A stretch of 64,000 nt of DNA from an uncultured delta proteobacterium (GCA_963745035.1 CAVUVW010000002.1:96001-160000); one strand, 5' to 3'. Positions 4,113 through 46,495 are shown, counted from the stretch's first letter. Notes: generated by a model not told the origin, from the sequence alone. Program-made: numbers and translations.

Positions 4113-4278
4113 AGATTCTCCTATTTCGAATGGATAACTAGACCATGCCAGAGATCAGTCTTCCTGGCGGTCTGTTTGCAAGATAAACAACCAGGGTGCG
4201 GTAGTTGGCGTCTCTCAAAACACCTCGTTGCCTCTAATTCCATGATAGCCAATCGCGCGCCGATTAAGAAATGGCGAT

Positions 4279-4294
4279 TGTCTAATATTGAACA
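4279..4294. promoter_or_regulatory. Crp-like palindromic operator, site 1
   Basis: TGTCTAATATTGAACA; minus-strand -10 TATCAT at 4242-4247, gap 31 nt. Confidence 0.8.
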
Positions 4295-4308
4295 ACCCTG
4301 AATAAATT

Positions 4309-4728
4309 TTATTCAGCAGTATGAACAGGCGCTCCAAGCTTTGCCGACGTTGCGTCGAGGCGAGATGGCGTCCAATGCTTAAGCTTGTGCCGTATGTACT
4401 GGGGTTCCAACCCGAGTGCGTCGCAGACGGACAGAAAGGAGAAGAGCCGGCGAGAGTTGTCGCTGAAGAACCAATCCTCAGCTTCGTGCGCGCTCTGTAT
4501 GCGCGGCTGATCCCCTTCAAATTGGTTATGAAAGCAAAGAAATGCGTCTTCGAGCACGGCATACATCAAGGCCGTCTCCGGGCACACCTTAGTGAGCTTG
4601 ACTCTAGAGTCGAAAAACTGTTCGGGAAGCACGGCGTGTTCGAAGGGCCGATCATACGTTGCGACCCGGTGCGTCGACCCGCTCAGGCGCGCACGGCGGC
4701 GGTGGGTGGTGATATTGGTGTCGCGCAT
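4309..4728 (-). CDS. Hypothetical protein, paralogue of 28200..28772
   Basis: Shared core PE.ALM.A.L.DA...F...EAE.W.FSD.SR.LFSFLSVCDAL.L.PQYIR..LK.W. Confidence 0.8.
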   Translation of the reverse strand: MRDTNITTHRRRARLSGSTHRVATYDRPFEHAVLPEQFFDSRVKLTKVCPETALMYAVLEDAFLCFHNQFEGDQPRIQSAHEAEDWFFSDNSRRLFSFLSVCDALGLEPQYIRHKLKHWTPSRLDATSAKLGAPVHTAE

Positions 4729-4851
4729 TGCGCCCTCTCTAAAAGTTGCGGAACAGTGGGCGATGAAATGTCACATCCGAATGTTCGCGCTCGCACCCGC
4801 GTTGATGTCGGTCGCGGTTCAAACACGCTATGTTGTCTCGGCGCGGGTTAC

Positions 4852-4867
4852 TGTCTAATTCTGTACG
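4852..4867. promoter_or_regulatory. Crp-like palindromic operator, site 2
   Basis: TGTCTAATTCTGTACG; minus-strand -10 TAGCGT at 4825-4830, gap 21 nt. Confidence 0.6.
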
Positions 4868-4963
4868 CTTCTGCAAATATCGCGGATATTCTGTTGATTT
4901 ATTATCGCTAACGGAATGGCCCACATCTCGATAATCCGGAACCTAGCGCGCTGGTAGACGCAC

Positions 4964-5665
4964 TCATGCTGCTGTTCCGAAGAGGGCGCCAATCCCCGCG
5001 GTCACTCCCATCGCCAGCGCGCCCCATAGCGTGACGCGCAGCGCGCCTACCGTTACCGGCGCGCCGCCCGCGCGCGCGGCCAACCCGCCCAATAGCGCCA
5101 GGAAAACCAGTGAAGTTCCAGAGACGAGAGGGATTAGGCTCGCCTCGGGAACTAATGCCGCGGTCGCGATCGGCATCGCCGCTCCCACAGCAAAACTACC
5201 GGCCGACGCCAGCGCAGCTTGAATCGGCCGCGCATTGAGAGTCACGGAGATACCGAGTTCGTCGCGGGCATGCGCGCCGATCGCGTCATGGGCCATGAGT
5301 TGATCGGCGACCTGTTTCGCGAGCGCAGGATCGAGGCCGCGACCGACGTAGATCGCCGAGAGTTCCCTGTGCTCGCCGGGAGCGTCTAATTTTAGTTCCG
5401 TGCGCTCGAGCGCAAGATCGGCCTGTTCGGTGTCGGCCTGTGAATGGACAGACACGTATTCGCCGGCAGCCATCGACATAGCTCCGGCTACGAGTCCGGC
5501 GACTCCCGCGACCAGCACGCTGCTGTGAGTCGCATGCGCGGCGGCGACACCCAGCACCAGACTCGCCGTCGAAACGATACCGTCGTTCGCGCCCAATACC
5601 GTCGCGCGTAACCAGCCGATGCGTTCTGTGCGGTGTCGTTCTCTGTGTCTTAACGACATACTCAT
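4964..5665 (-). CDS. VIT1/CCC1 family Fe/Mn transporter
   Basis: WLRA.VLGANDGIVS and GAMSMAAGEYVSV motifs. Confidence 0.95.
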   Translation of the reverse strand: MSMSLRHRERHRTERIGWLRATVLGANDGIVSTASLVLGVAAAHATHSSVLVAGVAGLVAGAMSMAAGEYVSVHSQADTEQADLALERTELKLDAPGEHRELSAIYVGRGLDPALAKQVADQLMAHDAIGAHARDELGISVTLNARPIQAALASAGSFAVGAAMPIATAALVPEASLIPLVSGTSLVFLALLGGLAARAGGAPVTVGALRVTLWGALAMGVTAGIGALFGTAA

Positions 5666-5824
5666 CGTGTCCTCGCTGCGTCGAAAACAACCGCTTTACA
5701 AAGGCGGCACCTTCGCAACCGGAAAGTAGATCAGCGCGCCAAGATTACGAAACTGTCGAACAGCCTTTGGTCTCACGTGTCGGACGCACCGCGGTTCAGA
5801 TAAGCGATAACTCGTAAGGATTAC

Positions 5825-6273: not shown

Positions 6274-7731
6274 CTAACCGACGCTGCCTTCGAGACTCAC
6301 GCTCAAGAGCTTCTGCGCTTCCACAGCAAATTCCATCGGCAGCTCGCGAAATACCTGTTTGCAGAAGCCATTGACGATCAAAGTTACGGCGTCCTCGGGT
6401 GAAATGCCGCGCTGCCGGCAGTAGAAAAGCTGATCCTCTCCGATCCTTGACGTCGAAGCCTCATGTTCCACCTGCGAGGAGTTGTTCATGACTTCAAGGT
6501 AAGGGAACGTATGCGCGCCGCACTTATCGCCGAGCAGCAACGAGTCGCACTGGGAGTAATTACGCGCACCGCTGGCGCCCCTCGCCACTCGCACGAGCCC
6601 CCGATAGGTGTTCTGTCCATGTCCTGCCGAGATGCCCTTCGAAATGATCGTGCTCTTGGTATTTTTGCCGATGTGGATCATCTTGGTGCCCGTGTCCGCC
6701 TGCTGGAAATTGTTGGTGAGCGCAACCGAATGAAACGCTCCGACTGAGTTATCACCCTGCAGGATGCAGCTAGGATATTTCCAGGTGATGGCCGATCCGG
6801 TCTCGACCTGGGTCCAGGAAATCTTGGAGTTGGTTCCCAGACATTTTCCCCGCTTGGTGACAAAATTGTAGATTCCGCCTTTGCCGTCCTTGTCGCCGGG
6901 ATACCAGTTCTGCACCGTCGAGTACTTGATCGTCGCATTGTCCAGCGCAACGAGCTCCACCACGGCGGCATGCAACTGATTTTCATCGCGCATCGGCGCG
7001 GTGCATCCTTCCAGGTAACTCACCGAGCTGCCCTCATCGGCCACGATCAACGTTCGCTCAAACTGGCCGGTTTCAGCGGCATTGATGCGAAAGTAAGTCG
7101 ATAGCTCCATCGGACAGCGCACGCCTTTCGGGATGTAACAGAACGAGCCGTCGCTGAAGACCGCGGCGTTCAAAGCGGCGAAGAAGTTGTCGCTGTAAGG
7201 CACCACCGAGCCGAGGTATTTTCTGACTAACACCGGATGCTTCTGTACAGCTTCCGAAAAGGAACAAAAGATGACTCCCAACTCCGCTAACTTTTTCTTG
7301 AATGTCGTCGCCACCGAGACGCTGTCAAAGACCGCATCGACCGCGACGCCGCTGAGCCACTTTTGCTCCGCTAAAGGGATGCCGAGCTTCTCATAAGTTT
7401 CGAGCAGTTTAGGATCGACTTCTTCGAGGCTCTTTAGGCTCCCGTTTGTTTTCGGCGCCGAGTAATAGATGAGATTTTGATAGTCGATCGGCGCATAGTG
7501 GACATTGGCCCATTTCGGCTCCGCCTCGGACTTTTTCAATTTCACCCAGTGGCGGTAGGCTTTGAGGCGCCAGTCCAGCATGAAGTTCGGCTCGTTCTTC
7601 TTCGCCGAAATCAAGCGAACGGTTGCCTCGCTCAGCCCGCGAGGCACGGCGTCGTTCTCAATGTCGGTGACAAACCCGTACTTGTACTCCTGGTTGACCA
7701 GCGCCTCCGTCGTCTGTGTGGCAGTATTCAT
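6274..7731 (-). CDS. sufB: Fe-S cluster assembly scaffold SufB
   Basis: Full length; [34 protein letters not shown] and EHEASTS motifs. Confidence 0.98.
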
Positions 7732-7869: not shown

Positions 7870-8172
7870 TTAGTTCCTCGCTAGATGCCCGGCTAATTCG
7901 AGCGCCTTGAGACGATGGCCCAGCTTTTCTTGAAACCACGTATCCCTGGGCCAGTGCCACTTCGCATGCGGCAGCGCCTCGTCGCGGTATGAGCAGCCGT
8001 TCACCTTGCTCTGCAAGAATACGAGCTGCCAATAGCTCACCTTCTCCTCTTCCGCACTATCAGCAAGAGTTCTGCTCAAGACCTCATTGACTCGCGCTGC
8101 AAGCCCGCTCAAGGAATTTTGCGTCAAGAATCCAGGGAGAAACGATAGCTTTTCCGAATGATCCAACTTCAT
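7870..8172 (-). CDS. Hypothetical protein
   Basis: GGAGG before ATG 8172; lies downstream of operator site 3. Confidence 0.6.
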   Translation of the reverse strand: MKLDHSEKLSFLPGFLTQNSLSGLAARVNEVLSRTLADSAEEEKVSYWQLVFLQSKVNGCSYRDEALPHAKWHWPRDTWFQEKLGHRLKALELAGHLARN

Positions 8173-8344: not shown

Positions 8345-8360
8345 TGTCTAATATTGGACG
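8345..8360. promoter_or_regulatory. Crp-like palindromic operator, site 3
   Basis: TGTCTAATATTGGACG; minus-strand -10 TACATT at 8318-8323, gap 21 nt. Confidence 0.75.
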
Positions 8361-12483: not shown

Positions 12484-14191
12484 CTATATCCCTTGCATGA
12501 ACGCCCGTTCGATCTCACGCAGAATGCCGTCCGGTTCACGGACCGCAAGTTCGACGATTTCATCGGCGCGCGCTTGCGAGTCGCTGTTGGCGTAGATGCG
12601 CAGCTGCGGCGCGTTGCCCGAAGGCCGGATATGCGCGACGTCGCCGTTGTGGAAATAAATGCGCACGCCGTCGAGAACATTGATGCGCGCGATTTCGTCG
12701 AACCCAAGCGCTGGAGTGAAGAAACGCGCTAACGTCGCTTTACATTGCCGCCAGTCTGCCGCGGGCTCTGGCGCGAGCGGCGCCGGCAGGGCATCCGCGC
12801 GGCTCCGATCTAGGACAGTTCCCGCATCGAACTCCACTTCGATCACATCGCCGGGCGGAATCAGATTTGCCAGGATCGTTCGACTCGCGGCGACGGGAAA
12901 ATTATCGATCAAACCAGCCCGTCCAAAACGCGCCGGGAGGCGGTCCCATAGAGCGGACAAGCTCATGCCGCGCTCCACTGCCGCCGACAAATTGGCCAGG
13001 ATGGGGAGCGTGGCATCGCGTGTCGGCAGCGCTGCCAACGTCGCCTTACCCAGCGCGATATCGCTGCCGGTCAAAAAGCCTCCGTTAGCTTCCCAGCCGA
13101 CGACACGGTGGTAAGTTCCGGCGCTGTGCAAATGGTCGAGGGCGGAGACGACGTAGGGCGAGCCGATCTTGGTCTTCTCCAGCAAAACTTTGCGCTCGCG
13201 CAGGCGGCGCTCGATCGCATCGTTGGCGCTGATGGGAACCGCCGCCGCATCCGCGCCCAGATACTCGGCCACGACGAGACCCAAAAGGTCGCCGGGCAAG
13301 AAGCGCACGCGCCGGCCGCCAGGCTTGATTTCGGTGGCAGGCTAGAACGGCCGTCACCAATGGCCGATCGGAATCACCGTCCGTGGACACGATCGCGTGG
13401 AGCGGCCGGCCGCTCGCTTCGGCGGCGACGGCGAGCTCCTCCAAACCATCGAGCTGTTCGGCGGTGATATTTTCGGTATCGATTGGAACGAACGTTTCGC
13501 TGCGCCCCGCGGCGAGCACCACGGCGCCAAGCTCCTGGAGTATCCGCGGCAAGATATCGCGCCCCACCGCCGAATGCTGATAGACGAGCACCCGGAGCCC
13601 GGAGAGACAGCCGCTATCAAAGCTGTCGAGATAACGACGGACGTAAGCTTGCTCCGCGGCGCGTTCGACAGGTGGCAGCTCGAAAGGAGATTTCAACATG
13701 CCGGAGGTATCGAACGCTGAAGTCGTCGCGTTATGGCTGTATTCTTCCGCGCGCACGCGCTCGACTTCGAGGGTAATGCCCGCTTCGTCCGACTTTAAAA
13801 TCTCGCCGGCGCTCTTATTGATTTTAATGCCGTTACGATCGAAGGGAATGTGGCTGCCGGTCACCATCACGCCGGCGCGTCCCTTAGAAAGGGAATGGGA
13901 TATCAAAGCGGGCGTGGGGATTTTGCCGGCATTCTCCACCTGAAAGCCCGAGTCGACAATCGCCTGAGCGCAGGCACGCATGATGCGATCGGTGCTCGGT
14001 CGCAAGTCGCCGGCCATAGCCACCGTGCTGTTCGGACGAACATCGCCGATGCTCAACAAATAGCGAAGCGTTGCTTTGACGTTGATATAGGCTTCGAGAT
14101 CGGTGATGTCTTTGACTAAACCACGCAGGCCGCTGGTGCCGAATGCAAGGGGATGCGGGGTGTAGTTAAGAAAAGAATCCACGGATATCAT
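12484..14191 (-). CDS. Phosphomannomutase/phosphoglucomutase, split by a frameshift near 13320-13345
   Basis: FGTSGLRG, TGSH and DGDSDR in ORF 13085..14191; GWEANGG and RPSGNAP in ORF 12484..13308. Confidence 0.9.
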
Positions 14192-15172: not shown

Positions 15173-15376
15173 TCAACTCCGGTTTTGTCGATCGAGAACG
15201 CGCTCAGGCGACCGACCGCGTTGGCGTAGCCGCTCGCGAGCTACCCGGTGTGATTGTTCCTCTTCAGTAACAAGGTTTTCTTCCCGATGCTCGCCGAATA
15301 CGTTGGCCCATTGAAGATCGCTTCTGCCTCGGTATGGAGCTCGGTGACCTTCCGCTCGACGGTTGTATGAAGCCAT
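15173..15376 (-). CDS. Small Arg/Glu-rich hypothetical protein (67 aa)
   Basis: GAGGAGGT Shine-Dalgarno before ATG 15376; directly downstream of operator site 4. Confidence 0.6.
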   Translation of the reverse strand: MASYNRRAEGHRAPYRGRSDLQWANVFGEHREENLVTEEEQSHRVARERLRQRGRSPERVLDRQNRS

Positions 15377-15428: not shown

Positions 15429-15444
15429 TGTCCAATATTAGACC
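15429..15444. promoter_or_regulatory. Crp-like palindromic operator, site 4
   Basis: TGTCCAATATTAGACC; minus-strand -10 TACGCT at 15401-15406, gap 22 nt. Confidence 0.75.
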
Positions 15445-20160: not shown

Positions 20161-20175
20161 TGTCAATATTGAACG
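20161..20175. promoter_or_regulatory. Crp-like palindromic operator, site 5 (1 nt short)
   Basis: TGTC-AATATTGAACG; minus-strand -10 TATCCT at 20134-20139, gap 21 nt. Confidence 0.6.
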
Positions 20176-22785: not shown

Positions 22786-23037
22786 TTATGTAGCACTAGA
22801 CGACATCACACATGGTGGAATTAAAGCCGAGTTCTCTTCTTCCGCGCTCTCCCAATGACATCGTTCGCCGATCTGCTCGGTGGCCATACGCTTCCTTCGC
22901 TCGAAGTCCGACGCGTCATGCGTCGCTTGTGTCGCGAGTACGGCCATGGCACGGGTGTCGCCAATCCAATACGTGCCGCATCCGTTTGTTCGGACGCCTT
23001 GTCCTCTGCACATTAACTTAAACGACGCGGTATTCAT
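22786..23037 (-). CDS. Hypothetical protein
   Basis: ATG ORF downstream of the promoter at operator site 6. Confidence 0.4.
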   Translation of the reverse strand: MNTASFKLMCRGQGVRTNGCGTYWIGDTRAMAVLATQATHDASDFERRKRMATEQIGERCHWESAEEENSALIPPCVMSSSAT

Positions 23038-23190: not shown

Positions 23191-23206
23191 TGTCTAATAC
23201 TGAACC
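23191..23206. promoter_or_regulatory. Crp-like palindromic operator, site 6
   Basis: TGTCTAATACTGAACC; minus-strand -10 TATCAT at 23154-23159, gap 31 nt; flank nearly identical to site 1. Confidence 0.8.
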
Positions 23207-23249: not shown

Positions 23250-23928
23250 CTAGGCAATCTGCGCTAGGTAATCGGTGAGCTTGTGTTCCTTGATGATGAG
23301 AAAATGATCGCTGTTGGTTTCGATCAATCCCAGGTTGCGAAATCTTTGCATGAAGAAGCTGATCCGAGGCCGCGTCGTGCCCACCATCTCGGAGAATTCT
23401 TCATGCGAAATCTTCAGCTCGATGCGAATGCTGCGCGGGTCCTTCTTGCCCATGGTGCGGGCCAACTGCAACAACGTCTGGCCCAGCCTCTGCTCGCTAT
23501 CCACCGTCACTAGATTGGCGATGACCTGCTGTTGGTCGGCAACGCGCACCGCCAGGTAGCGCACGAACCCTTCGAATAGCGAGTCACGGCTAAGACGTGC
23601 AAAAAACTGCGAGCAGGGAATTCGCTTTAACTTCGTTTCAGTCATCGCCGTCGCGCTTTCGTGACGCGCCAACCCGGCTAGGCACAGCTCGCCGAAAATA
23701 TCGCCGCCGCCATGGATGGCCAGCAGGCATTCTTTGCCTTCGGGCGAGAGCAGGAGCAGTTTGATCTGCCCGGTCTCGATGAAATAGACCAGTCTCGTCC
23801 TGGTCGCCGCAGTTGTAAACACTCGCGTGCCGCGGGATCGTCACGGCGCGAGAGTTCAACGTCTCGTGCCGCAACGAATCGCGCATTTGCTGTTTGAACC
23901 GTTCCGCTTCGGGAGTCTGCTGGATCAT
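23250..23928 (-). CDS. Crp/Fnr family transcriptional regulator, copy 1 (1-nt insertion near 23793)
   Basis: ORFs 23638..23928 and 23250..23822 together align with the intact paralogue 45815..46495; HTH SEMVGTTRPRISFFM. Confidence 0.9.
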
Positions 23929-24433: not shown

Positions 24434-24449
24434 TGTTCAATATTGGACA
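24434..24449. promoter_or_regulatory. Crp-like palindromic operator, site 7 (oriented for the plus-strand gene)
   Basis: TGTTCAATATTGGACA; plus-strand weak -10 CAGCAT at 24471-24476, gap 21 nt. Confidence 0.75.
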
Positions 24450-28920: not shown

Positions 28921-28936
28921 TGTCTAGAATTGGACC
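28921..28936. promoter_or_regulatory. Crp-like palindromic operator, site 8
   Basis: TGTCTAGAATTGGACC; minus-strand -10 TACTTT at 28894-28899, gap 21 nt. Confidence 0.7.
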
Positions 28937-31708: not shown

Positions 31709-34700
31709 TTAGCTTTCGGCCGCTCGACCCTTATCTCTAGCCCCAAGGATAACGCGCACATGGTGCGCGGCGCCGTCGTCAACAAGCTGAACGTGCATAC
31801 CGGCGTTCGCGAGCGCTGCGCCGTCGAGCTCAACAGAGACCACGCCCTGCGCGACCCCTTGAGGGTTCTGCACGACGATTTCATAGCGCGCCGAGTGATA
31901 GCGGAAGGTGATTTCAAAGTTCCGCCACGCCCGCGGTATGCACGGATCGAAATAGAGAACCGTGCCGCGCAACCGAAATCCCAGGATCCACTCGACCCCG
32001 GCGCGATACATCCAACCCGCCGAGCCCGTGTACCAGGTCCAGCCGCCGCGGCCGACGTGCGGCGGCTCGGAATAAATATCGGCGACGACGACGTAGGGCT
32101 CGACTTTGTACCGGGAAACGCCGGCGCGCGTATTCGCGTGATTGATCGGGTTCAAGAGCGAGAAAATCTCAAATGCCTTGTCGCCTTCGCGGAGTGCCGC
32201 GAAAGCGATAACGGACCAGATCGCCGCATGAGTATATTGGCCGCCGTTTTCACGGATGCCGGGCGGGTACCCTTTGATGTAGCCGGGGTCGGGATTGGCT
32301 TGGTCAAACGGCGGGCTGAACAGAAGCATGAGACCCTCGGCGCGGCGCAGGAGATGTTTCTCAGCGGCCGCCATGGCACGCACTCCACGGGCCCGCTCTG
32401 CGGCGCCGGAAATGATCCCCCAGGATTGGGCGATTGAATCGATGCGGCATTCGGCGTTCCCGGCGGAGCCGAGCGGCGTGCCGTCATCGAAGTAAGCGCG
32501 CCGATACCATTCGCCGTCCCAACCTTCTCGTTCCAGCGCGGCTTTTAGCGCGCTGACATGCAGTCGCCACTTCTCAGCGCGCTGGTGCTCGCCACGGGTA
32601 TCGGCCAGCCGGGCAAATTCCCAGAGTACCGTGTGAAGAAACCAAGCAAGCCAGACACTCTCGCCTTTTCCTGCGGCCCCGACCAGGTTCATCCCATCGT
32701 TCCAGTCTCCCGTGCCAATCAGCGGGAGCCCGTGGCTTCCCACCCCGAGACTGCGATCGAGCGCGCGCGCGCAGTGCTCGAACAAGGTCCCGCTTTGCGC
32801 GGACACGCGCGGCTCGAAATAAAAATCTTCCTGCCCCGCCGCGAGCGCAGGCCCGTCGAGAAAGGGAACGACCTCCTCGAGAACTCCGAAATCGGTAGTG
32901 ACTTCCAGGTATTGAATGACCACATAGGGCAACCAGAGCAGATCATCGGAGACCCGGGTGCGCACGCCGCGGCCTGATGGAGGATGCCACCAATGCTGCA
33001 CATCTCCTTCGACGAATTGACGCGCGGCGGCGCGCAGCAACTGCGCCCGCGCAACATCTCGTTGCGCAATCATCAGTGCCATGACGTCTTGAAGCTGATC
33101 GCGAAAGCCGTACGCGCCGCCCGCCTGATAAAACGCCGAGCGCGACCAGACGCGGCAAGCGAGTGTCTGATAGAGCAGCCAACGATTGAGCATGAAGTTC
33201 ATCGCCCGATCGGGGGTTTTCAGCTGCACTGTGCCGAGAACGTCATTCCAGTACTTGGTGACCGCGCGCAGGACCTCTTCAAGATCGGCGCCGCGGTAAA
33301 GCGCAACCAATGTTCGCTCTTCTTCCACGCTCGCCGCCTCCCGAGAAAAAAAACGATCTCGGCGCGATCCCCCGCACGCAGCTCGACCTTCGTTTGCAGA
33401 GCAGCGCACGGATCCAGGCCGGCGCCCACTTTACCGGACAGGCGATCTCCTCGTTCGAGACATGCCGGATGATCGGCTGTCCCGTTGCGACCGAGAAACT
33501 CGGTCCGATCGCTGGTCCACTCGGTTTGGCGCCCGCCTAAATCGGCAAACGCGACTCGGCCGGCGAACTCGCTGTTCCAAGCATTGCGCGCGAGCATCGC
33601 CCCAGTTTCCTCGTCCATCTCGGTGACAACGAAGGGAGCGGACCTACTCCGTGAAACGCCGAGAACCCAGTCGACATACGCGGTCACTGAGAGAGTTCTG
33701 GACCGACCGGAGTGATTCTTGATAGTGAGCCGAGAGATTTTAATTGGGTCCTTGAGCGGTACGAACTGGAGGAGCTCGAGGAAAACGCCGTGTGACTCGT
33801 GCTCGAAGCGACTGTACCCCTGGCCGTGTCGGGCGATATAAGGCCAAGTTTCCTCGCGGATCGGCAGCACCGTCGGGGTCCACAACTCGCCAGTGTCTTC
33901 ATCGCGCACATATATCGTCTCGCCGGGCGGGTCGGTGACCGGATCATTCGACCACGGAGTGAGCTGGTTCTCCCGGCTGTTTAACGACCAGGTGTAACCC
34001 GAGCCCGACTCGGAGACTTGAAAGCCAAAAGAAGGATTCGCGATCACGTTGATCCAGGGCGCCGGCGTCCATTGGCCCTCGCCGAGAATCGTCACGTATT
34101 CATCGCCGTCGGTGGTGAAGCCGCCCAGGCCATTGAAGAACTCGAGTTGCGGCCGCGGCGGCAAATCATCGGTTGCCTTCATTGCGGGCGAGCGCCGTGG
34201 CGCCGACAACGCGGGCTTTTGCGCTCGTTGCTGACGTTCTACTTGCTCGGCCAGAGTGCCCCGGCGGCTCAAAAGCACGGCTCGGGCCGCGCTCTGGAGC
34301 AGCGTGCGCTCCTCGGCCGAGATGAGATCTCCCCTGAGAATAAACACGCCGCCGAACGATCCCGGACCCTCGTGCTGCACACGCGATTGGCTGGCCCGCA
34401 CTTGGGCCTCCAACGCTTCCTGAAGGTTTTGCGCATAGGATGCGCCCTGTTCGTTCAAGATCACGAGATCGACCGCCAACTGCTTGATGCGCCAATATTC
34501 GTGGGCGCGGAGCAATTGCCGAACAATATTCTGGTCTTCAGTTTCATCGATGCGAACGAGCACGATTGGCAGGTCGCCGGAGATCCCGTGTCGCCAGAGT
34601 CCCGAAGGCCCCAGGTCATTACCCGTCAGCACCGCAGATGACGGCCGCAATGCCGGGTCCGAGTACAAGATCCGGCTGGCTAACTCTTGAAATAGGTAGG

Positions 34701-37700
34701 CTTCATCGACCTCGATACCGAGATGACGCAACTGCACCTGCGCTTGCGTCCAGGCGAGGGTCGCCGCCCGCTCAAAGGTTGCTGGATTATTATATTCGTC
34801 GGCCAAAGCGAGCGCCTGATCGCGCGATGATGCAATGAGCGTCGAGAACGTGACGCGCGCGGAAGCGCCCGGTCCAAGCCTTACACAACGTCTAAGGCTC
34901 ATAATCGGGTCGAGCACCGTCCCAGCGGTTTTCGAGAGCGGGTGGCCGTCGATCACCGACATCGGCGTGCGGATGCCGCGACCGCGGCCGAGAAAGCGCA
35001 CGCGGTCGGTCTCGTATTCCGTCTCACCGACGGTTTCTCCTTCGGCGACCACCACGTGCACCGCCCAAATCTGCGGCTCGCCGTGCGATCGTGGCCGGCG
35101 GGTCGCCAGCACAGCGCCGAGGTCGGCAACATACTCCGTCTGTACAAACAGATTTGAAAAAGCCGGATGGGCCGCGTCCGCCGCCGGCGTCGCCAAGACG
35201 ATCTCCGCGTACGAGGTCAGCTCAATTTCGCGCGTTCGTGCTCCGAGATTGGTGATCGACACCCGGCGCACCTCGGCATCGTGCTCGGGCGAAACCACGA
35301 TTTCTAGAGTGCTAGCGATCGCGCCATCGCGCCGCCGAATCTCCACGCGATCTTCGGAAAAAGCCACGTCATAAGCATCCGGTTCGACGCCGCTTGGCTG
35401 ATAGGCCGCCGACCAAACGCGTCCGGAAGATCTATCGCGCAGGAAAAAATACGTGCCATAGGCGTCGCGCGTGCGGTCCTCGCGCCACCGCGTAACCGCA
35501 AGGTTGCGCCAATGGCTGTATCCGGAACCCGCCGTCGTAATCATTGCCGCATAACGCCCGTTGGAGAGGATATGAACAGCGGGAGCCGGATCGTACGGCG
35601 AGTTGAATCGACGAAGCACCGGAGGAACGAGATCGCGGACGTTCGCGACGGCTCGCACTTCCTCGACCCTCGGCCGGGTTATCAAGACGTTGCGCGGTGT
35701 GCGTTCCTGCAGCAGCAACTCCGTGGCTTGCATGCGCGGCTCAGCGTGAAAACGCGCGCGCATGACGCCATCGTGGAGGACATTGGCGAGGGCGACGAGC
35801 GACATTCCCTGGTGATGCGCCATATAAGCATGCACAACCCCGACCGCTTGATTCTCGGGAAGGCGAGTGGCGGTATAATCAAGTGCCTCGTAAAAGCCAT
35901 ATCGACCCTGCGCGCCGGCGGCGGCAAGACGCGAGAAATTCTCTGCCGCCGCTTTCGGATCAATCATCGCCGCCAGCGCCGTGGCGTAAGGCGCGACGAC
36001 CACATCTTCGCTCAAGCCGCGTTTGAGACCCAATCCCGGCACGCCAAAATTCGAGTACTGGTAGGTTAGCTGCAAATCGCGGGCGTTGTAGGCCGACTCC
36101 GAGACTCCCCAGGGAACGCCCCGCTCGGCTCCATACTTCTTCTGACGGCGGACGACGAAAAGACATGTCTGGCCGAGCAGACTCTCGGACGGTGAATGCA
36201 TCACCAGCATCGGCATAAGGTACTCGAACATCGACCCGGACCAGGAAACCAGTGCAGAGCCGCGATCGACGGGCGTCAAAGCGCGGCCGAGGTGGAACCA
36301 ATGTGACGAAGGGACGTCCCCCTTGGCGATGGCGACGAAGCTTGTAAGTCGCGCCTCCGAGGCCAACAGATCGTAACAACTTGGATCGAGACTGTGGTCG
36401 GGAACGCGATAGCCGATCGAGAAGAGTTTACGGGTCGAATCGAACAGGAAGCCAAATTCCATTTCTTCGAATAGCGTTTCGGTGAGCCGCACAAGCGTCG
36501 AAAGGCGGCGCCGCAGTGCCACGCAACCGGCGGCAGACCGTGCGAGCCCCTCGATAACCATATCGATTCGACCAACGGTGCCGCTCGGTGCGGTGTTTTC
36601 CGGCGCCGAGCGTTCGCGCAACGGCGTGAGTTCGGATAGGACGTCATCGTAGCGCTCCGGCGCATCACCTAGAGTGGGTATGGAAAGCAAAGATCTCTCC
36701 ACCGTCGAAACCAAATGATGTCCGGCAATTTCGCTGCGACCTAACAAAGCACTGCCGAAGACAGCCTCAGCCCAGGGCATTGCCGTGTGAAAATCGCGCG
36801 CGTGACTCGCGATCCCCGCACGCACAGCTTCGGCCCAAGCAAGCAACTCCACATCGGCGCCGTAATCCTGCTCCGCCGTCAATGTGCGCGCGATGTCGGT
36901 CATAGTTTGAGCCCGGCTCTCGAGTTCCTCGAGGCGCTGGAGCCACTCGTCTGGAATCTTAGGAATCGGGCGGAGCACGGCGGTCAGAGCATCGATGGCT
37001 TCATCCAACTGTTTCCGAGTAACGGTTTGAGTGCGCCGGTCGTCGGCAATCTCGCGCCTGGATTGACGGAGCAACACAATGGCGTCGGCAATCCCTGAGA
37101 GCACGCGCGGGCCAAGCAGCGGTCGATCGAGGATCTCCCGGCAGGCCTGTCCAAGCGCGATAAGGTGGCCGGCGAGGTTTCCGCTATCGACCGAAGATAT
37201 ATATTTGGGATCGAGGGGGCGGAGGTCTCGCGTATCATACCAGTTGTAGAAGTGGCCTCGGAACCGCTCGAGTCCGTTCATGGTTGCGAGCGTCGCTTCC
37301 AGCCGTTCGATGGCATCCACCGTGCCGATCCACCCGAAATCATGTGCGGCGACGATGGAGAGCAGATACAGCCCGAGGTTGGTGGGCGAGGTGCGATGGG
37401 CTACGACTGGCGTCGGCTCTTCCTGAAAATTATCCGGCGGAAGCGCGTGATCTTCAGGCCCAACAAATTTCTCAAAAAATAGCCAAGTCCGGCGCGCGGT
37501 TAACCGCAGCGTACGAGCCTCGCGTTCGGAAAGGGGTTCAGCTACAGCCTCTCGCGCCGGCAGGCTGATCCAATAAGCCACTAGAGGCGACAGCACCCAG
37601 AGAAGCGTGAACGGCACCGCAACCGGCCACACCGCCGGCGCGCGCAACACAACAAAAATACCCGCGGCAGTGGCTAGAATAACCGCGGGCATCATTCGCC

Positions 37701-40557
37701 GATAGGAGTTTGTTAGGCTATGATCCGAATCGATTTTCGCTTCCGCTGCTGTCACCCACTCCAGCAGCCTACGTCGTGTCCCATAGACGCGCGCGACGGT
37801 CCGCACAATCGCATCGGCCATCAGCCGTGCTTGATCGGCGAGGAGTATAATGGTCAATACGATATGCGATAGGGCGAGAGCCAGGTCTGTGGCGACCGCC
37901 CGCGCGTAGCTGCGTTTTGAAATTCCGCGGCGGCGCGGGATTGCGCCGATCAATACGTATAGCAGCGGAGGAATAGCGATGCATCCGAGTACGAATGCGG
38001 TCCATCTCAAAGGCGAAGCGAACGGCAGAGACCAACCGGCTATTAAGGCCAAAAAAGCCGCCGGTGCGAACAGGGCGCGCCGCAGATTGTCGAGCATTTT
38101 CCACCGACCGATGAGCGGAATCGAGACGCGAACAGGAGCGCCCTTCGTGCGTCCGATGATCCACGGCAGCAATTGCCAATCACCGCGAACCCAACGGTGT
38201 TGGCGCACCCGGGCGACCTCGTAACGCGACGGAAACTCCTCGAAGAACTCGATATCCGTGACAAGCCCAGCGCGCGCAAAAATTCCTTCAAAGAGGTCAT
38301 GACTCAATAGAGCATTCTCTGGGACTCTTCCCTCGAGCGCAGCCTCGAATGCGTCGACATCGTAGATTCCTTTGCCGATGTAGGAACCTTCGCCGAAAAG
38401 ATCCTGATAAACGTCCGAAACGGCAGAGGCATATGGATCAATACCGGCCGGTCCCGAGGAAATCCGTTGGAAGAGAGAACCCTCCCGATCGGTCGGCAAT
38501 GTCGGTGTAACGCGCGGTTGAAGCAGCGCATAGCCCTCAACGACTCGGCCGACCCTAGGATCAAACCTGGGCCGATTGAGGGGATGCGCCATGGTGCCGA
38601 CCAATTTGCAGGCTGTCCCCCTGGGCATTCGCGTGTCGGCATCAAGCGTAATGACGTAGCGAATACCCGCGGGCACGGTAGGATTTTTGCCGTCGGCCGC
38701 GATGAACGTGGTATCCGTGGCTCCACGCAATAAGCGATTCAGTTCATGAAGCTTTCCACGCTTGCGTTCCCACCCGATCCAACTTTGCTCGCTCTCATTC
38801 CAGCCGCGCCGCCGATGAAAAAGAAAAAAACGCGCGTTTCCGTCCGATGCGGGTCCCTGGCGACGGTTCAATTCATCGATGCCCTTGACTGCTGCCTCCA
38901 GCAAATCGTCGTCTCTCGGCATAGTTTCGTGCGGTGCGTCGATCCAATCGGTAACCAGCGCGAAACGGAGGTTGTCATCTGGATTTGCTAGGTGATGCAC
39001 TTCCAGGCGCTCTAGCTGCTTCGCAACCTGAGTCTGGTCAATCAGCAGCGTGGGAATGGCAACCAGGGTCCGTAAATCCACGGGTAGCCCATCAAGTAAC
39101 GCAAGCCTCGGCAGCACCCGTGGTCCTAGCAGCTCCGTGACCTCTCGATTTACTAATGCGATCGCCAGATCTGAAGCCGGCACGAGAGCGAGAAGCCCGG
39201 CGAGCAACAGACCGATAACCCCAGCCTCTGCTGCACCCGAGGTAAACAAGAACAAGGCCAGAATGATGCCGCTGACGATCGCGATAGTTGCGAGGTACCG
39301 CGATGTGGCATTCGTCACATAGGCGCGGCGCAGCCACGTCTTGACCGGCATGCGAAAGCCAAGTTCTTGCTCGAAGGGAATGCGGCCGTTCCCTATAAGG
39401 TAGTATCCCGGATAGCCGCGAGGGTCCGCCGTTGAGTCGCTGGCCTTCTCGGCTTGGGCCAAAAAATATTTCGCTTTATAGACCGCACGCCGGGCGACTT
39501 CACGCTCGTCGTGTGGTGAGCAGCGCGACAGGTCTTCGACCGCACGCCGGTAACGATCGCGTGTCGCGAAGTCCGGCGCGGCAAAACCGGAATCGCCCCA
39601 GAGTATGGCGTCCACAAGACTCACGCTCTCGAAGAATTCGGCCCAATCGAAAGCGGAAATCAGGCGCATGCTCGTAATCACGTTGCGTACGGTCACGTTC
39701 AACGCTGCCTGACGCTGGTGTTCGTGCCTGACGATCTCGGTCGTGGGGCCTTCCGCCGCCAGGCGTTGCTCGAGCCACTGAAGAGCAGGCGTTATTGCAG
39801 GGTCCTGATCGCGTAGACGTTGGACGAGCTGCACGGCAAACGCAGGCGCCAGCGGGCCGCCCTCGAACTGCCGCAGGATCGTTGCCGCGGGTTCCATCGA
39901 ACGGTTGGCCAGCTCCAGCAGTCGGTCGGCAAGCGCATCAGCCTCTTGCCGTGCGGACCGGTCATGCACAACGCGCTCCGCCAAGCGGCGCAGGTTTTCC
40001 ACCAAAACAATGCGCACCGTGATCGCTACCGCCCAAAGCTCGCCGATAGTCAATGGCTGGACGCGCTGGTAAGCACGCACGAAGCGGCGCAATATTTCCG
40101 GGTCAAACCTGCTGTCGGTGTGGGCAACAAACGCCCACGCCAGACCATAGACGCGGGGAAATCCGTCGAGTGGACCGTCGGCCAACTTGGGCAGGCCTCG
40201 ATAGTAACGGGGTGGAAGGTCGTCATGAATTTCGCGCAGCTGTTCGTCGACAATGTGGTAATTGTCGACGAGCCATTCCGCCGCCGGTGTGATGGCGCGC
40301 TCCTGACGCATCGCCCGGGAAATGGCGCGATACGATTCAAGCAGCACGCGGCCATTGTCGACCACGCGCGGCAAGAGCGGACGCCCCTTGCGCGGAGTCT
40401 CCGTCACACGCTGCGCCAATGCGAGGGATTCGGCGTGCTGCTCGAGACGCTCGGCGCTGAACAGTTCGGCCCGAATGGGATCTTCGAGTCGCGGCAGGGC
40501 AATGGCTTGTGACGTTTTTTTTCGGACTCGTAGAGCCTGCGGTATTGCCGAATTCAA
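31709..40557 (-). CDS. ndvB: Cyclic beta-1,2-glucan synthase (GT84 plus GH94 phosphorylase), 1-nt deletion near 33341
   Basis: GWERKRGK, YIGKGIYD, LLSHDLFEG, RQHRWVRGDWQ, SWSGSMFEY; C-terminal GFRDQLQD, GDWNDGM and ENGGQYTH. Confidence 0.93.
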
Positions 40558-41344: not shown

Positions 41345-43295
41345 TTATTTGCTTTGGATCGCCTGCTTGACTATGGTCAGAACTTCCTCGCCAAGATAGG
41401 GCTTTTGAAGCACGCCGGTCAGTTCCCCACTGGCGACGCGCGATTCGGCTTCGGCGGACACATAACCGCTGGCGAGGATTCCTTTCAGCTTCGGATTGAT
41501 TTTTCTCATCCGTTGAAAAGCTTCCCACCCACTCAGCTTTCCCAAGCGCGAATCAAGCACCGCTAGCGTGATCTCGTCTCGGTGCCGATCATGCACTTCC
41601 ACCGCTTCGACTCCGTTTTGCGCCGTCAAGACTTTGAATCCTTCCTTTTCCAGCAGCCGTTGCATCAAACCGGAGAGCCTGGCATCGTCCTCGGCATAGA
41701 GAATCGTCTCACGCTGCGGCGACTCGATCTTCTATTTTGTTTTGCGCCAAAGCAGGGGTTATGTCCTCTGCCGCGGCCTCGTCTCCTGGAATCGGCAGAT
41801 AAATATGAAAGGTCGAACCGCGGCCGGGTTCACTGGTTACCTCGATGAAGCCCGCATGTTCACTGACGATATCGTGAACTATTGACAGTCCGAGACCGGT
41901 CCCTTGGTCCGGCTTCTTAGTGGTAAAATAGGATTCAAAGACGCGACTCCTGACGTCTGCCTCCATGCCAACGCCGGTATCCGCGACGCTGATGTAGACA
42001 TATTGCTCTGCTCCGGCTTCGGGAAAATGCTGGCGCAGCACGGCACCTGCAATGATTCGAGTCTGCAAAACAATTTTCCCGCCGTCCGGCATCGCGTCCC
42101 GCGCGTTGATGCAGAGATTGAGGATGCTCTGATATATGAAACCGGCATCGATCATAATCATCGGCACACGCGGACCGAGATCTGCGGCGATGACAACGGC
42201 CGCCGGAAACAGCGGAGTCAATGATCGAGTCGTTCGTAGGAGCAAATCATTGATATCCGCAAGTTCGAACTTTGCCTCCGTCTTTCGCCCAGCCGTAAGC
42301 AGTTGCCGCGCCAGCGCCACGCCCTCCTCGACGGTTACCCTGATCACCTCGGCGTTCTCGACAACCCTCTGTTGCTCGCCCGGATGGCTCATGATCAGTG
42401 CCGCATAGGCCTGGATCACATTTAAGATGTTGTTGAAATCGTGCGCTATGCCGGCCGTCAGCTTACCTATCCGTGAAGTCATTTCTGAATGCGGTAGTTG
42501 CTTGTGAAAATCCTTGCCGTCTTCGATAAATCTCACGAGATCGGCGTTCGCCTTGATTAAGTCCGCGGTTTTTTCCGAGATTCGGGCCTGCAACTCTCTA
42601 TTGAGCTGCTGCAGCTGTTCTTCCACCTTCGTCCTGCTATCGATGTTACCCTTCAACGCCTCGTTGACGGCGGCTAAGTCCAGGACGTGTTGCCGTTCGT
42701 TTCTGGCTGCGGCTTCGGCGCCGACCCGTGCTTGCCATAGTTGCCATGAGGCCGACGCGAACTGACCCAATGTCTTGATGATCCGCTCATCTTCCTGATC
42801 GAATTTCCGGCGCTCGTCATGGGCGACGACCCACACCGTGCCGATCGGTTTCTGCGCTACGTGAAACGGGATGAGCAAGGCCTCGACGACGGGCGGTTCC
42901 GATTTTAGCGCCGGGAAAACGCGCTCCGCCATATACATGAGCTGAGTTGCGTTGCGATCGATCGTGGTACCGCAAGGACTTGCGTCTCTAGGCATCGTAG
43001 CGTTGAGGCGGCCGCTGAACACTCCCGCCAGCGCCTCCCAGCGGAACACCTCCGCGCCATCCTGTCGCTCCAACAGGCTGATCCCGGCCGTATCGGCACG
43101 GCAAAGTTGCAAGGCCGTTTCGGCCAGCCTTTGCAAGATCATATCGGGCGCATCAGCGAGGGTCTGCGCCAAAGCGATCAAAGCGTGATTTTCGGCTTCA
43201 TAGTCGGGCTCTCTGGAAGGCCTATTTAGAAGCTGGGAATTGATGACGACGTCTTTCAATCCCACTTCGGAAAATGGCAATGGGTTTAAATCCAT
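41345..43295 (-). CDS. GAF-HisKA-HATPase-REC hybrid histidine kinase, frameshift near 41712
   Basis: GAF domain, AGIAHDFNN and G boxes; receiver (ILYAEDD...KPY) in the next frame; GGAGG before ATG 43295. Confidence 0.88.
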
Positions 43296-43382
43296 ATGGC
43301 CCTCCGTTCGGGATTTCTCCGTGATAAACAACAGCTCTTTGTTCAAAAAACTCAATTTTACTGGTCTCCTAATTAAAAACTC

Positions 43383-43398
43383 TGTCTAAAATTGAACA
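43383..43398. promoter_or_regulatory. Crp-like palindromic operator, site 9
   Basis: TGTCTAAAATTGAACA; minus-strand -10 TAAAAT at 43355-43360, gap 22 nt. Confidence 0.8.
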
Positions 43399-43690: not shown

Positions 43691-43706
43691 CGTCTAATAT
43701 TGAACA
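43691..43706. promoter_or_regulatory. Crp-like palindromic operator, site 10
   Basis: CGTCTAATATTGAACA; minus-strand -10 TAAGCT at 43644-43649, gap 41 nt. Confidence 0.7.
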
Positions 43707-44137: not shown

Positions 44138-44308
44138 ACACCCTCAATGCGGATGGATGAGCCACCTTTCACGGACCGCTAGACAACGTTTCGCACGGCG
44201 ACTGTCCTTAACGGGGAAAAATTGCATTCCTGAGAGCCGCCCTTTAAAGCCTAACGAACAAAGTGCATACTTGAACGTATCGCCGTACTGATCGTAGGGA
44301 GGCAAGTC

Positions 44309-44782
44309 ATGATCAAACGCATTATCGGTCCGGACACTATGGACTTATCGTCCGGCGGAGAGCGATGGTTAAATCTAGATACGTTAGCGCAGGTGGAGGT
44401 AACCTCGGAGGACGCGGCATATCCGGTGGAAATGGGATTGCTACCGCCAAGCAAATCCGGTTGGCGAGCCGCACAGCCGGGACCGCAGACCGTGCGTCTC
44501 GTTTTTGACAAACCGCAGAGAATTAAGCATGTGCAATTGCGGTTTCACGAAGATGAGTCGCCCCGCACTCAACAGTTTGTGTTGCGTTGGTCCGCAAACG
44601 GCGGGCGTACCTATCGTGAAATTGTCCGCCAGCAATACAATTTCAGTCCTCCCGACACGACGGACGAGCGCGAGGATTATACTCTTGATCTTGACGCCGT
44701 GACCAATCTTGAACTGAGCATCGTTCCGGACATCAGCGGCGGATCTGCCCGCGCCTCGCTCGCGCAGTTACGCCTGGCGTGA
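44309..44782 (+). CDS. Galactose-binding-like (discoidin/carbohydrate-binding) domain protein
   Basis: VEVTSED, GWRA..PG.Q..RL.FD.PQ and REIVRQQYNFSP motifs. Confidence 0.75.
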   Translation: MIKRIIGPDTMDLSSGGERWLNLDTLAQVEVTSEDAAYPVEMGLLPPSKSGWRAAQPGPQTVRLVFDKPQRIKHVQLRFHEDESPRTQQFVLRWSANGGRTYREIVRQQYNFSPPDTTDEREDYTLDLDAVTNLELSIVPDISGGSARASLAQLRLA

Positions 44783-45140
44783 GTACTGGAGGGCTTTCGC
44801 CTGATAAAGAAAATAAGTATGGGATGATCCATCGGGTGGCCCGCAAGCGGGGCACGGTCTCCGGCTGAGCCATGAATAATAGCGTTAAAATACCGCAACG
44901 CAATTCCACTGCACGTTTTGCCAAGCTCGTAGCAACCTCACGCGAGCTTGCAAAAAAGTCGGACGGGCTTCGCCGCAAGAGCGAGAGCCTGCTGATTTAC
45001 TCCGGGCAACTCAGACTGGATTCCCAAAGCTTAGTCGCCGTTGCGGCTTCAACTTCGAGCATCTCAGACAGGGACGCCGTCCTCTTACGCGAAAGGCAAA
45101 ACTTTGCATTGGGGGACCCTTCGCCTATCTCGCGTTAGTT

Positions 45141-45485
45141 CTAGCTCTTTTTCGCGTTTTCAACTTTAGCAAAACAACGCTCGATAAAGGCTCCTAACGG
45201 CCCTCCCGCTTGACGCCGCAAAATCTCAGCGAGGTCGCCCTTATTGAGCCAGATTCCTTCGCAACTTTCACAACGTTCGACAACAACGCCCTTGACTGTG
45301 TGCTGCGCCAGATTGCCAAGGCACTTTGGACAAGTCGCCATCAGCGCTTGTCGTTTGGTGGCGTCGGCCCTCTGATGCTCGCTCTTCATCCGTTCGACCA
45401 GTTCATGTTCGTGCACGGCAAAATAGCTGTCTTCATTGGTGCGCTCGTCGAAGGGTTCGCCGGGGCGATTGGTTTCGTTCTTCAT
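45141..45485 (-). CDS. zf-TFIIB-like zinc-ribbon protein
   Basis: CPKC...V.VE.C..C.GIWL..G.L; N-terminal E..YF motif. Confidence 0.85.
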   Translation of the reverse strand: MKNETNRPGEPFDERTNEDSYFAVHEHELVERMKSEHQRADATKRQALMATCPKCLGNLAQHTVKGVVVERCESCEGIWLNKGDLAEILRRQAGGPLGAFIERCFAKVENAKKS

Positions 45486-45636
45486 GAATTGGCCTCCTGA
45501 ATTTCGCGTTCACGCTCGAAGCACTTGGATTACCTAGGGCTTTCGACCGGAGTCAATTTACAAATGGCTGCTTCAGCCAAACCGTCGTCTTTCCTCTCAA
45601 TAGTAACCAGCGGCGGCGCGATTCAAAAACGCAGAT

Positions 45637-45652
45637 TGTCTAAAACTGAACA
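45637..45652. promoter_or_regulatory. Crp-like palindromic operator, site 11
   Basis: TGTCTAAAACTGAACA; minus-strand -10 TACTAT at 45600-45605, gap 31 nt. Confidence 0.78.
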
Positions 45653-45814
45653 CTCTGAAATCGAGTTATCGGCGATCACGGAGGCTGGATGACCCGGCGA
45701 GATTTCCGCTGTGCCAGTGCGGCGCACATGATGGAAGGGCGGTGAAAGGCGGAGTGATGGGCCTTCTAAAAGATGCTGCCGCAATCGGAAGATTTGTTTA
45801 GCGCCGGAAAGTAC

Positions 45815-46495
45815 CTACGCGATCTGGGCCAGATAATCGCTCAGTTTTTTTTCTTTGATGATGAAGAAGCGATCTTCGTTGGTTTCGATCAATCCCAGGT
45901 GATGGAAGCGCTGCATGAACAAACTGATCCGCGGCCGCGTCGTGCCGACCATCTCGGACAGCTCTTCATGGGTGATCTTGAGCTCGATGCGGATGCTGCG
46001 CGGATCTTTCTTGCCCATCGTGCGCGCTAACTGCAACAGCGTCTGGCCCAATCGCTGCTCGCTGTCCACCGTCACAAGATTGGCGATGACCTGCTGCTGA
46101 TCGGCGATCCGCACGGCCAGGTAGCGCACAAAGCCTTCGAACAGGGAATCCCGTTTCAGACGCGTAAAAAATTGTGCGGAAGGTATGAGCTTTAAGATCG
46201 TTGCTTTCATCGCCGTAGCGGTTTCCAAACGCGCTCCCAACCCGGACAGACACAGCTCGCCGAAAATATCGCCGCCGCCATGGATGGCCAAAAGGCATTC
46301 TCTGCCTTCAGACGACAGCATCAGCAGTTTGACCTGACCGCTCTCGATGAAATAGACCATCTCGTCTTGATCGCCGCTGTTGTAGACACTGGCATGCCGG
46401 GCGACCTTGATCGCCCGAGTGTTGAGGGTCTCACGCTGCAAAGAATCACGCAGTTGTCGCTTGAATTCGTCGGCTTGAGGAGTCTGTTGAATCAT
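45815..46495 (-). CDS. Crp/Fnr family transcriptional regulator, copy 2 (intact)
   Basis: cNMP-type barrel (VYFIESG.VKL, FGE) plus HTH ITHEELSEMVGTTRPRISLFM. Confidence 0.95.
   Translation of the reverse strand: MIQQTPQADEFKRQLRDSLQRETLNTRAIKVARHASVYNSGDQDEMVYFIESGQVKLLMLSSEGRECLLAIHGGGDIFGELCLSGLGARLETATAMKATILKLIPSAQFFTRLKRDSLFEGFVRYLAVRIADQQQVIANLVTVDSEQRLGQTLLQLARTMGKKDPRSIRIELKITHEELSEMVGTTRPRISLFMQRFHHLGLIETNEDRFFIIKEKKLSDYLAQIA

Follow-up and report, generated by a model that had tools for sequence, protein, structure and literature searches.

A conserved palindromic box linked to a distinct Crp/Fnr subfamily marks a candidate stress regulon in soil Binatia and Acidobacteriota

Escherichia coli CRP is the reference case of class II activation, in which a dimer centered near −41.5 makes contacts with RNA polymerase; class II activators of the Crp/Fnr superfamily generally occupy a site near this position that overlaps the −35 region. 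The general stress regulons of SigB, RpoS, and EcfG/PhyR, which are similar in gene content to the one discussed here, are driven by alternative sigma factors. Among the closest described regulators, SdrP (TTHA1359) of Thermus thermophilus reportedly activates in the class II manner, its sites lying at or across the −35 box (PMC8465061), and both SdrP and DdrI of Deinococcus radiodurans are presented as effector-independent Crp-family regulators of stress and stationary-phase genes (PMC8465061, PMC11253593). Cmr (Rv1675c) of Mycobacterium tuberculosis carries Pro209 in place of CRP Glu189, and the 16-bp motif that it favors has a GT/AC core with C at position 4 and G at position 13, positions 2, 3, 14, and 15 being the motif core that it shares with CRP; Cmr is also reported to lack a canonical cyclic AMP (cAMP) pocket and to overlap the dormancy (DosR) regulon (PMC5758884). 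Here, we analyze a 64,000-nt stretch of DNA (the window; positions 96001-160000 of contig C2) from genome G000 (7.43 Mb, 28 contigs, 58% G+C), which belongs to a soil bacterium of the uncultured class Binatia. The window carries repeated copies of a 16-bp palindrome (the box) together with two Crp/Fnr paralogues, Crp1 and Crp2. The box and its regulators apparently represent a real, conserved, and undescribed regulon of a new Crp/Fnr subfamily, known in kind as that of a class II Crp-type activator and new in operator, distribution, and content. A search of the full-text literature for six literal box forms, and for Crp in Binatia and Acidobacteria, gave no published description of the box or the regulon among the matches listed.

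The box has the consensus YGTCCAATATTGGACR and the core GTYYAATATTRRAC. A position weight matrix (PWM) built from 93 sites of other genomes concentrates its information in this core, with weaker preferences for Y and R at the two ends. Within the PWM set the GT/AC core is invariant, 74% of sites have C at position 4 and another 23% have T there, and the central AATATT, which is nearly invariant, is the most conserved part. Pattern and PWM searches were run alongside shuffled, simulated, and reversed-pattern controls. The pattern TGTYYAATATTRRACV with at most one mismatch occurs at seven places in the window (4279, 8345, 15429, 23191, 24434, 43383, and 43691), compared to 0.02 expected from 100 dinucleotide shuffles; this search returned 13 rows because both strands were counted, and none of the shuffles reached 13. 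With up to three mismatches, 10 places were found against 0.82 expected, the additions being 28921, 45637, and 44700. The last of these scores below 5 bits with the PWM and was not counted as a site. Another candidate at 50174 (8.6 bits) was discarded because it has a hairpin downstream and lacks promoter-like flanks. No PWM hit of at least 5 bits lies in the window before 4279 or after 50174. The enrichment over background that had been expected from the initial annotation is therefore present, and its remark that sites are missing from the 53- to 64-kb part holds. Of the eleven palindromes it had listed, nine are strong (16.5 to 28.6 bits), the one at 4852 is weak but plausible (10.1 bits, a score range also reached by simulated background), and the 15-mer at 20161 is doubtful.

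Across the 7.43 Mb of the genome there are 11 matches with at most one mismatch, 6 of them in the window, and 20 with at most two; PWM hits of at least 12 bits number 27, of which 9 lie in the window and are the nine strong palindromes named above, and 2 Mb of simulated first-order Markov sequence contained none. As judged from these matches, the genome would hold about 20 regulon promoters, half of them within an accessory region at 4 to 46 kb of the window. As a correction to the initial annotation, the regulon extends beyond the island, with about half of the sites located elsewhere in the genome. Two pairs of boxes on separate contigs have near-identical flanks (C19:287609 with C26:68262, and C13:1782397 with C5:94991), which may be duplicated box-plus-gene modules or assembly redundancy (the contamination estimate is 5.8%). 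Genes for an integrase, a DDE transposase, IstB, and an HNH protein stand beside some non-island boxes (L079:2221-2817, L083:3370-4575, L108:272-637, and L106:801-1907), an association compatible with mobility of box-carrying segments.

The box is physically linked to genes of the Crp2 subfamily. We retrieved 78 loci from other genomes purely by similarity to Crp2 (77 to 94% identity), and the 428 kb that they comprise contain 93 motif matches with at most two mismatches. In 42 of 78 evaluable copies a box lies within 300 nt after the crp stop codon, 37 of these at 15 to 61 nt and most commonly at 45 to 49 nt. Boxes within 1 kb upstream of crp were found for 16 of 77 copies, three of them at 57 to 141 nt, and some genomes have operons in which a box is followed by a relative of p4309 (a small window protein, described below) and then crp. 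As in the window, boxes in other genomes cluster near crp paralogues.

Motif and regulator also tend to occur in the same genomes, although the counts given here are to be read as patterns rather than statistics, since related genomes are not independent. Among 151 genomes of the host's own class, three have both, one has only the Crp, one has only the motif, and 146 have neither. The exact 14-mer of the motif occurs only in G000 (seven copies), G038 (three), G056 (two), and G011 (one), and a Crp2 orthologue (E ≤ 1e-40) only in G000, G056, G038, and G020; the 142 genomes of the other 18 families have neither the exact 14-mer nor the orthologue. The boxes of G020 are of relaxed form, and one lies 30 nt past the crp gene; G011 is fragmented (260 contigs), with pieces of the island on short contigs. 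In the class of the Acidobacteriota genome G153, a hand tabulation of 121 genomes with an orthologue threshold of E ≤ 1e-60 gave 37 with both, 8 with only the orthologue, 3 with only the box, and 73 with neither; the class contains 152 exact boxes, compared to 16 for the reversed control pattern. The only further Crp/Fnr gene of G000 detected in a Pfam HTH_Crp_2 search, a distant one on contig C20, does not track the motif: its homologues occur in 36 of the 151 genomes, 33 of which have no box, and the gene is absent from box-bearing G056. In a quick, midpoint-rooted tree of 81 Crp rows, the Binatia-type sequences form one clade of 61 (SH-like approximate likelihood ratio test, 98), and the Acidobacteriota-type rows form a grade outside it. 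This topology, together with the restriction to one Binatia family, suggests that the regulator and its regulon passed from one phylum to the other long ago.

Crp2 (45815..46495, minus strand) is an intact 226-residue protein and the proposed binder of the box. It has the two domains that define the Crp/Fnr superfamily, a beta-barrel of the cyclic-nucleotide-binding type (PF00027, 2e-13) and a C-terminal HTH_Crp_2 domain (PF13545, 3e-14), both of which are also present in Crp1. The latter (23250..23928, minus strand) is 84% identical to Crp2 over residues 46 to 226 and has one extra base near codon 46 (23792). Of the two paralogues that had been annotated, Crp2 is therefore intact, and Crp1 is read with a frameshift in the assembly; two soil RNA libraries gave contigs that stay in frame across this position, so the shift may be an assembly error or a strain difference. 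A tblastn search (E ≤ 1e-5) found no other genes of the subfamily in G000, so that both members are in the window. The best PDB sequence matches of Crp2 are GlxR and MtbCRP (E of about 1e-22). Its AlphaFold2 model (mean predicted local distance difference test score, 77.5) has the Crp fold, again with MtbCRP and GlxR as the best Foldseek matches (about 1e-16); neither the model nor the Foldseek search gave a hint of a ligand. Crp2 falls below every NCBIfam equivalog cutoff (57.5 versus 266 bits for CRP and 48.5 versus 228 bits for Fnr), and mean column identity within the subfamily is 88% (29 copies).

The recognition helix, TTRPRIS(L/M/V)FMQRF, is nearly invariant in 80 copies. Compared to SRETVNK of GlxR, it keeps the Arg that reads G2 and has Pro in place of the Glu that reads position 4. 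By the rule established experimentally for Cmr (PMC5758884), a Pro-for-Glu helix would be predicted to select GTC rather than GTG, matching the C or T observed at position 4. Crp2 is accordingly of the Cmr-like recognition type, with R-P-R aligned to R-E-T and C or T at position 4, an assignment that does not imply orthology to Cmr. The likeness lies in the recognition code and not in close kinship, as Cmr is not among the best 60 PDB sequence matches listed for Crp2, and the unconserved center of the Cmr motif differs from the nearly invariant AATATT of the Crp2 boxes. The 16-bp TGT-N10-ACA palindrome is shared with E. coli CRP; however, the R-E-x-x-x-R/K helix of CRP proper (R-E-T-V-G-R in E. 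coli) is R-P-R-I-S-L in Crp2, and the boxes read GTC or GTT rather than GTG. SdrP and DdrI likewise differ in having RE..(R/K) helices and TGTGA- or TGTRA-type boxes, in belonging to other phyla, and in regulons that are not clustered with paralogous regulators. Nor does Crp2 resemble FNR, as residues 1 to 66 contain no Cys and the box differs from TTGAT-N4-ATCAA. Alignment with GlxR shows that, of the residues contacting cAMP, Crp2 retains the Arg (GARLETA versus GPRTSSA), whereas the Thr/Ser that follows is replaced by Leu and the helix-C Thr by Gln. With most of these contacts lost, Crp2 appears more likely to work independently of cAMP, like Cmr, SdrP, and DdrI.

The sequences around the boxes are organized as promoters. 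When the flanks of 104 foreign sites were examined in both orientations, a TANNNT hexamer followed the 16-mer at an offset of 21 nt in 52 of 208 flanks, compared to 5 at offset 20, 9 at offset 22, and 0 to 7 at the other offsets. In G000, 13 of the 27 sites have TANNNT at 20 to 22 nt, against 2.9% of random positions, and four more have it only at 30 to 32 nt. Fifty distinct oriented promoters yield the consensus AatTtTTTTCaAaat-tGTCCAATATTGGACA-G.AAtCCcTcCC.aGTCaGc.-TAt..T. This main promoter type has no −35 element at the normal distance, and with a spacing of 21 nt and a start placed 7 nt after the hexamer, the box center would fall at −41.5. The T-rich tract preceding the box may act as an UP-like element, and the AT-rich sequence there might serve the C-terminal domain of the alpha subunit. 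A variant promoter has its −10 hexamer 31 nt after the box (4279, 23191, and 45637 in the window and foreign loci L001, L005, L006, and L025). The 31-nt spacer of these variants is filled by a second imperfect palindrome, GCCGnTTCnGAAnCGGC-like, which in the window lies at 4295-4330, 23155-23190, and 45600-45636 (all minus strand). A search for this second palindrome alone (four mismatches) returned mostly noise, and its close matches were found only beside boxes, so that a second regulator may use it as an operator. Many sites of G153 could not be oriented by the presence of TANNNT at +20 to +22; GATCAT-like hexamers were seen there by eye.

These observations fit best with the box being the operator of a distinct, highly conserved Crp/Fnr subfamily that controls a general-stress/dormancy regulon by class II activation, an explanation that we consider probable. 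A Crp dimer would bind the box, which in most promoters would be centered about 41.5 bp upstream of the start and would replace the −35 element, and the bound dimer would recruit RNA polymerase to the −10 hexamer (TAnnnT) 21 nt downstream. In G000, the regulon would comprise small unknown proteins, the p4309/p28200 family, a HisKA-only protein with a CarD-like protein and a desaturase, SufB, DoxX, a GAF kinase with its receiver, and a zinc-ribbon protein; in other genomes, YflT, CsbD, superoxide dismutase, and crp would be further members. The analysis shows directly that the motif is enriched and clustered, that it is linked to crp and co-occurs phyletically with the regulator, and that it stands at a fixed spacing from a −10-like hexamer. 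From these we infer binding of the box, activation, the start position, and the physiological role. The proposal that the local Crp paralogues activate a stress program through these palindromes, which goes back to the initial annotation, thus gains sequence-based support from linkage, co-occurrence, the third Crp/Fnr gene that does not follow the motif, spacing, and the recognition helix.

Several points weigh against this reading. The PWM sites were picked with the pattern of the initial annotation, so their scores are partly circular, although the shuffles and the reversed pattern are controls independent of this circularity. Co-occurrence is patchy and among kin, and other island genes would co-occur likewise. 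The exact 14-mer is absent from eight Crp-positive genomes of the Acidobacteriota class and from G020, and G266 has six exact sites and no orthologue at E ≤ 1e-60. Neither crp gene of G000 is preceded by a box, the best upstream scores being −1.8 bits for Crp2 and −3.9 bits for Crp1. The −41.5 position depends on an assumed start about 7 nt after the hexamer, and the +31 spacing at 4279, 23191, and 45637 implies a box at −51.5, which is not a classical activating position. The spacer (G.AAtCC, then GTCaGc before the hexamer) and the upstream flanks are, in addition, more conserved than class II activation needs. On the other side, soil RNA libraries lend the reading weak support: contigs from four of them cover 26, 20, 14, and 24 of 30 bins of 667 nt between 12 and 32 kb, and two RNA contigs from different studies start at 24497 and 24512, a little downstream of the start at about 24483 predicted for the box at 24434. 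Such libraries can include DNA, however, and the end of a contig does not mark the end of a transcript.

The spacing of the variant promoters bears on the direction of control. If the Crp paralogues bound the boxes but mainly repressed, or acted dually, at least where the spacer is 31 nt (4279, 23191, 45637, L001, L005, L006, and L025), a box center at −51.5 and the presence of the second palindrome in the −35 region, seen only beside boxes, would be accommodated, and Crp-family proteins can repress. We regard this as unlikely, since most sites have the 21-nt spacing and no recognizable −35 at 17 nt, an activator-dependent arrangement, and since the box overlaps neither the −10 hexamer nor the start. 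The identity of the binder can be questioned in turn. At 15 of the 78 loci crp is immediately preceded by a gene for a p4309-like protein, and zinc-ribbon genes occupy this place at 8 of the 78; both kinds of protein are without a known family, and co-occurrence cannot separate co-inherited genes; either could in principle bind the box, with the Crp genes as mere neighbors. It is quite unlikely that such a co-inherited protein is the binder, given that a 16-mer of the TGT-N10-ACA type at −41.5 is a Crp/Fnr signature, that the Pro-for-Glu change predicts the observed position-4 base (by the Cmr precedent; PMC5758884), and that most box loci have no p4309 or zinc-ribbon gene within 3 kb.

Two further explanations would dispense with a dimeric regulator or with regulation altogether. 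Conservation extends past the box (AatTtTTTTCaAaat upstream, G.AAtCC and GTCaGc in the spacer), and its proximal half, TTGGACA, resembles TTGACA, as would be expected if the unit of about 65 bp were an alternative-sigma promoter with the palindrome forming part of its −35 region. Such a promoter leaves the dyad symmetry, including the distal half, unexplained; the 21 to 22 nt between the proximal half and the −10 hexamer are too long for a −35/−10 pair, and no sigma-factor gene was seen beside boxes in the examined loci, all of which makes this interpretation highly improbable. That the palindromes act as terminator hairpins or belong to a small repeat element, with no regulatory role, is barely credible: many boxes do lie about 45 nt after a stop codon and are palindromic, but no T-run follows them, and AATATT, the would-be loop, is their most conserved part. 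The flanks, moreover, differ between copies except for the promoter features, the distance to the −10 hexamer is fixed, and the motif tracks the regulator gene across genomes.

With class II activation by the Crp paralogues as the preferred explanation, the window sites can be read as promoters of specific genes, all on the minus strand unless stated otherwise. The highest-scoring box of the window (4279..4294, 28.6 bits) belongs to a variant promoter, in which the 31-nt spacer with the second palindrome is followed by TATCAT. It faces the gene for a HisKA-only protein of 137 amino acids (3699..4112; GTG start after AGGAG), the first gene behind the box, after which a CarD-like gene (2993-3577) and a desaturase gene (1483-2403) follow on the same strand. 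The weak box at 4852..4867 keeps the flank gtaaccc, has TAGCGT 21 nt downstream, and faces p4309 (4309..4728), a 139-residue protein without a known family that matches only unnamed Binatia-type clusters in the protein atlas. Because flank and hexamer distance are typical, and because p4309 is a paralogue of p28200, which lies behind the site at 28921, this box is probably real but weaker. The box at 28921..28936 (18.1 bits) has TACTTT at +21 and faces p28200 (28200-28772/28838). At 8345..8360 (28.2 bits), the box has TACATT at +21 and faces an open reading frame (ORF) of about 100 residues (7870-8172), which is followed by sufB (6274-7731); in foreign locus L037, SufB is directly behind a box.

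The box at 23191..23206 (21.3 bits) lies 44 nt after the Crp1 stop codon and is a variant promoter with the 31-nt spacer; it faces an 83-residue ORF (22786-23037), followed by DoxX (22151-22747). Another variant promoter with the 31-nt spacer, at 45637..45652 (16.5 bits), has TACTAT as its hexamer, lies 163 nt after the Crp2 stop codon, and faces the zinc-ribbon protein (45141-45485). Two boxes form tandem promoters for a GAF histidine kinase (41709-43295/43355) and a receiver gene (41345-41668): one at 43383..43398 (24.1 bits; TAAAAT at +22) and, 308 nt upstream of it, one at 43691..43706 (22.9 bits; TAAGCT at +21), with a 49-residue ORF between them. GAF kinases are also found behind boxes in L010, L041, L060, and G020. 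The box at 24434..24449 (27.7 bits) is the sole window box on the plus strand, facing p24535 (24535-24882). Its flipped asymmetry, pointed out in the initial annotation, is real in that this is the only window site whose conserved flanks (an AT-rich tract upstream and GCAAT downstream) face a plus-strand gene. Boxes also precede the p24535 orthologues in G056 and G038.

Other target assignments of the initial annotation needed revision. The box at 15429..15444 (26.1 bits, TACGCT at +22) does not face the operon encoding an OmpA-collagen protein and a sigma54 two-component pair; it lies 93 nt after the stop codon of the sigma54 regulator gene and faces a 67-residue ORF (15173-15376), downstream of which are phosphoglucomutase (PGM) and Band7 genes. 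The sole candidate box for the OmpA/sigma54 operon is the 15-nt element before it at 20161..20175, which keeps its promoter-proximal half and has TATCCT 21 nt after its ACA end, but whose half-sites are 1 nt too close. This element is doubtful as an operator, because a 1-nt spacer change abolished binding of SdrP, another Crp-family protein, in the experiments cited from PMC8465061. The kinase taken for a hybrid (41709-43355) proved to be a GAF histidine kinase whose receiver is encoded by a gene of its own. Of the remaining predicted targets, genes for small unknown proteins and the HisKA-only protein face boxes, DoxX and sufB lie behind intervening small ORFs, and the OmpA/sigma54 operon would be retained only together with 20161. 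NCBIfam gave no match for the small target proteins. Boxes of G000 outside the window face a SnoaL/DUF4440-like protein and several unknown proteins.

The genes behind boxes in other genomes are similar in kind, with the reservation that the ORF calls there are heuristic and some are spurious. They include the p4309 family (five cases), GAF kinases (four), desaturases (three), YflT (three), crp (three), and superoxide dismutase (two), as well as SufB, CsbD, and small membrane proteins. In G153, for which gene content refers only to genes near sites, the box-rich regions encode Crp paralogues, sensor-only paralogues, STAS proteins, CarD-like proteins, GroES/GroEL, FtsH, a desaturase, and an RRM protein; at one place, a box downstream of crp is immediately followed by a CarD-like gene. 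In both phyla, putatively box-controlled operons repeatedly encode a CarD-like RNA-polymerase-binding protein (window 2993-3577, L109:3802-4332, and L110:4757-5299). The sensor-only paralogues of G153 are Crp sensor domains of about 170 residues without a DNA-binding domain (L103:2126-2641, L105:11142-11657, and L110:1652-2200), encoded next to STAS-domain genes and complete copies of crp; they might pair with the regulator and modulate it. As annotated from sequence, the target gene content is that of a general stress response. Genes typical of stress regulons (CsbD, YflT, BON, ferritin-like, entericidin, small membrane proteins, superoxide dismutase, and chaperonins) are represented here, with the difference from the SigB, RpoS, and EcfG regulons that a Crp-type activator is apparently the driver.

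Within the window, Pfam annotation of the long ORFs gave VIT1, SufB, Lon, Band7, and phosphoglucomutase; an OmpA-collagen protein, a Cache sensor, a kinase, and a sigma54 activator; DoxX, entericidin, BrkB, YflT, BON, and a ferritin-like protein; and a GH94 cyclic-glucan-synthase-like giant, the GAF kinase and receiver, the zinc-ribbon protein, and the two Crp/Fnr regulators. DNA comparison with five genomes of the same family showed 50.8 to 60 kb to be syntenic core, whereas the island genes are scattered, rearranged, or absent in these relatives, and 31.7 to 40.5 kb has no DNA match in any of them. It is therefore fair to call the region an island in the sense of a variable accessory region. 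The GH94/cyclic beta-1,2-glucan-synthase-like gene (31709-40557, about 2,900 residues) is split into two overlapping ORFs, and PGM (12484-14191) is also split, which suggests indel errors in the assembly.

We know of no master stress regulator of this kind in soil Acidobacteriota. A broader interpretation, which we offer tentatively and would not yet favor, is that the subfamily may be a cAMP-independent master activator of stress and dormancy genes in much of soil Acidobacteriota, acting through a composite promoter of about 65 bp, and that it may have moved together with its target promoters into one Binatia family as a portable regulon, with the sensor-only paralogues, the p4309 family, and the CarD-like and HisKA-only proteins as possible built-in modulators.

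The regulator is a further natural instance of the rule that C at position 4 accompanies a Pro-for-Glu exchange in the recognition helix of Crp proteins. Both Acidobacteriota and Binatia abound in soil, can be grown in culture with difficulty or not at all, and have regulatory circuits of which next to nothing is known. In vitro tests of the regulator do not require a cultured host, the box allows regulon members to be predicted in any metagenome, and the regulon may serve as a stress marker when metatranscriptomes are read again. As a regulon that can be read from sequence alone, it would offer a direct way of studying how these organisms become stress tolerant or dormant.

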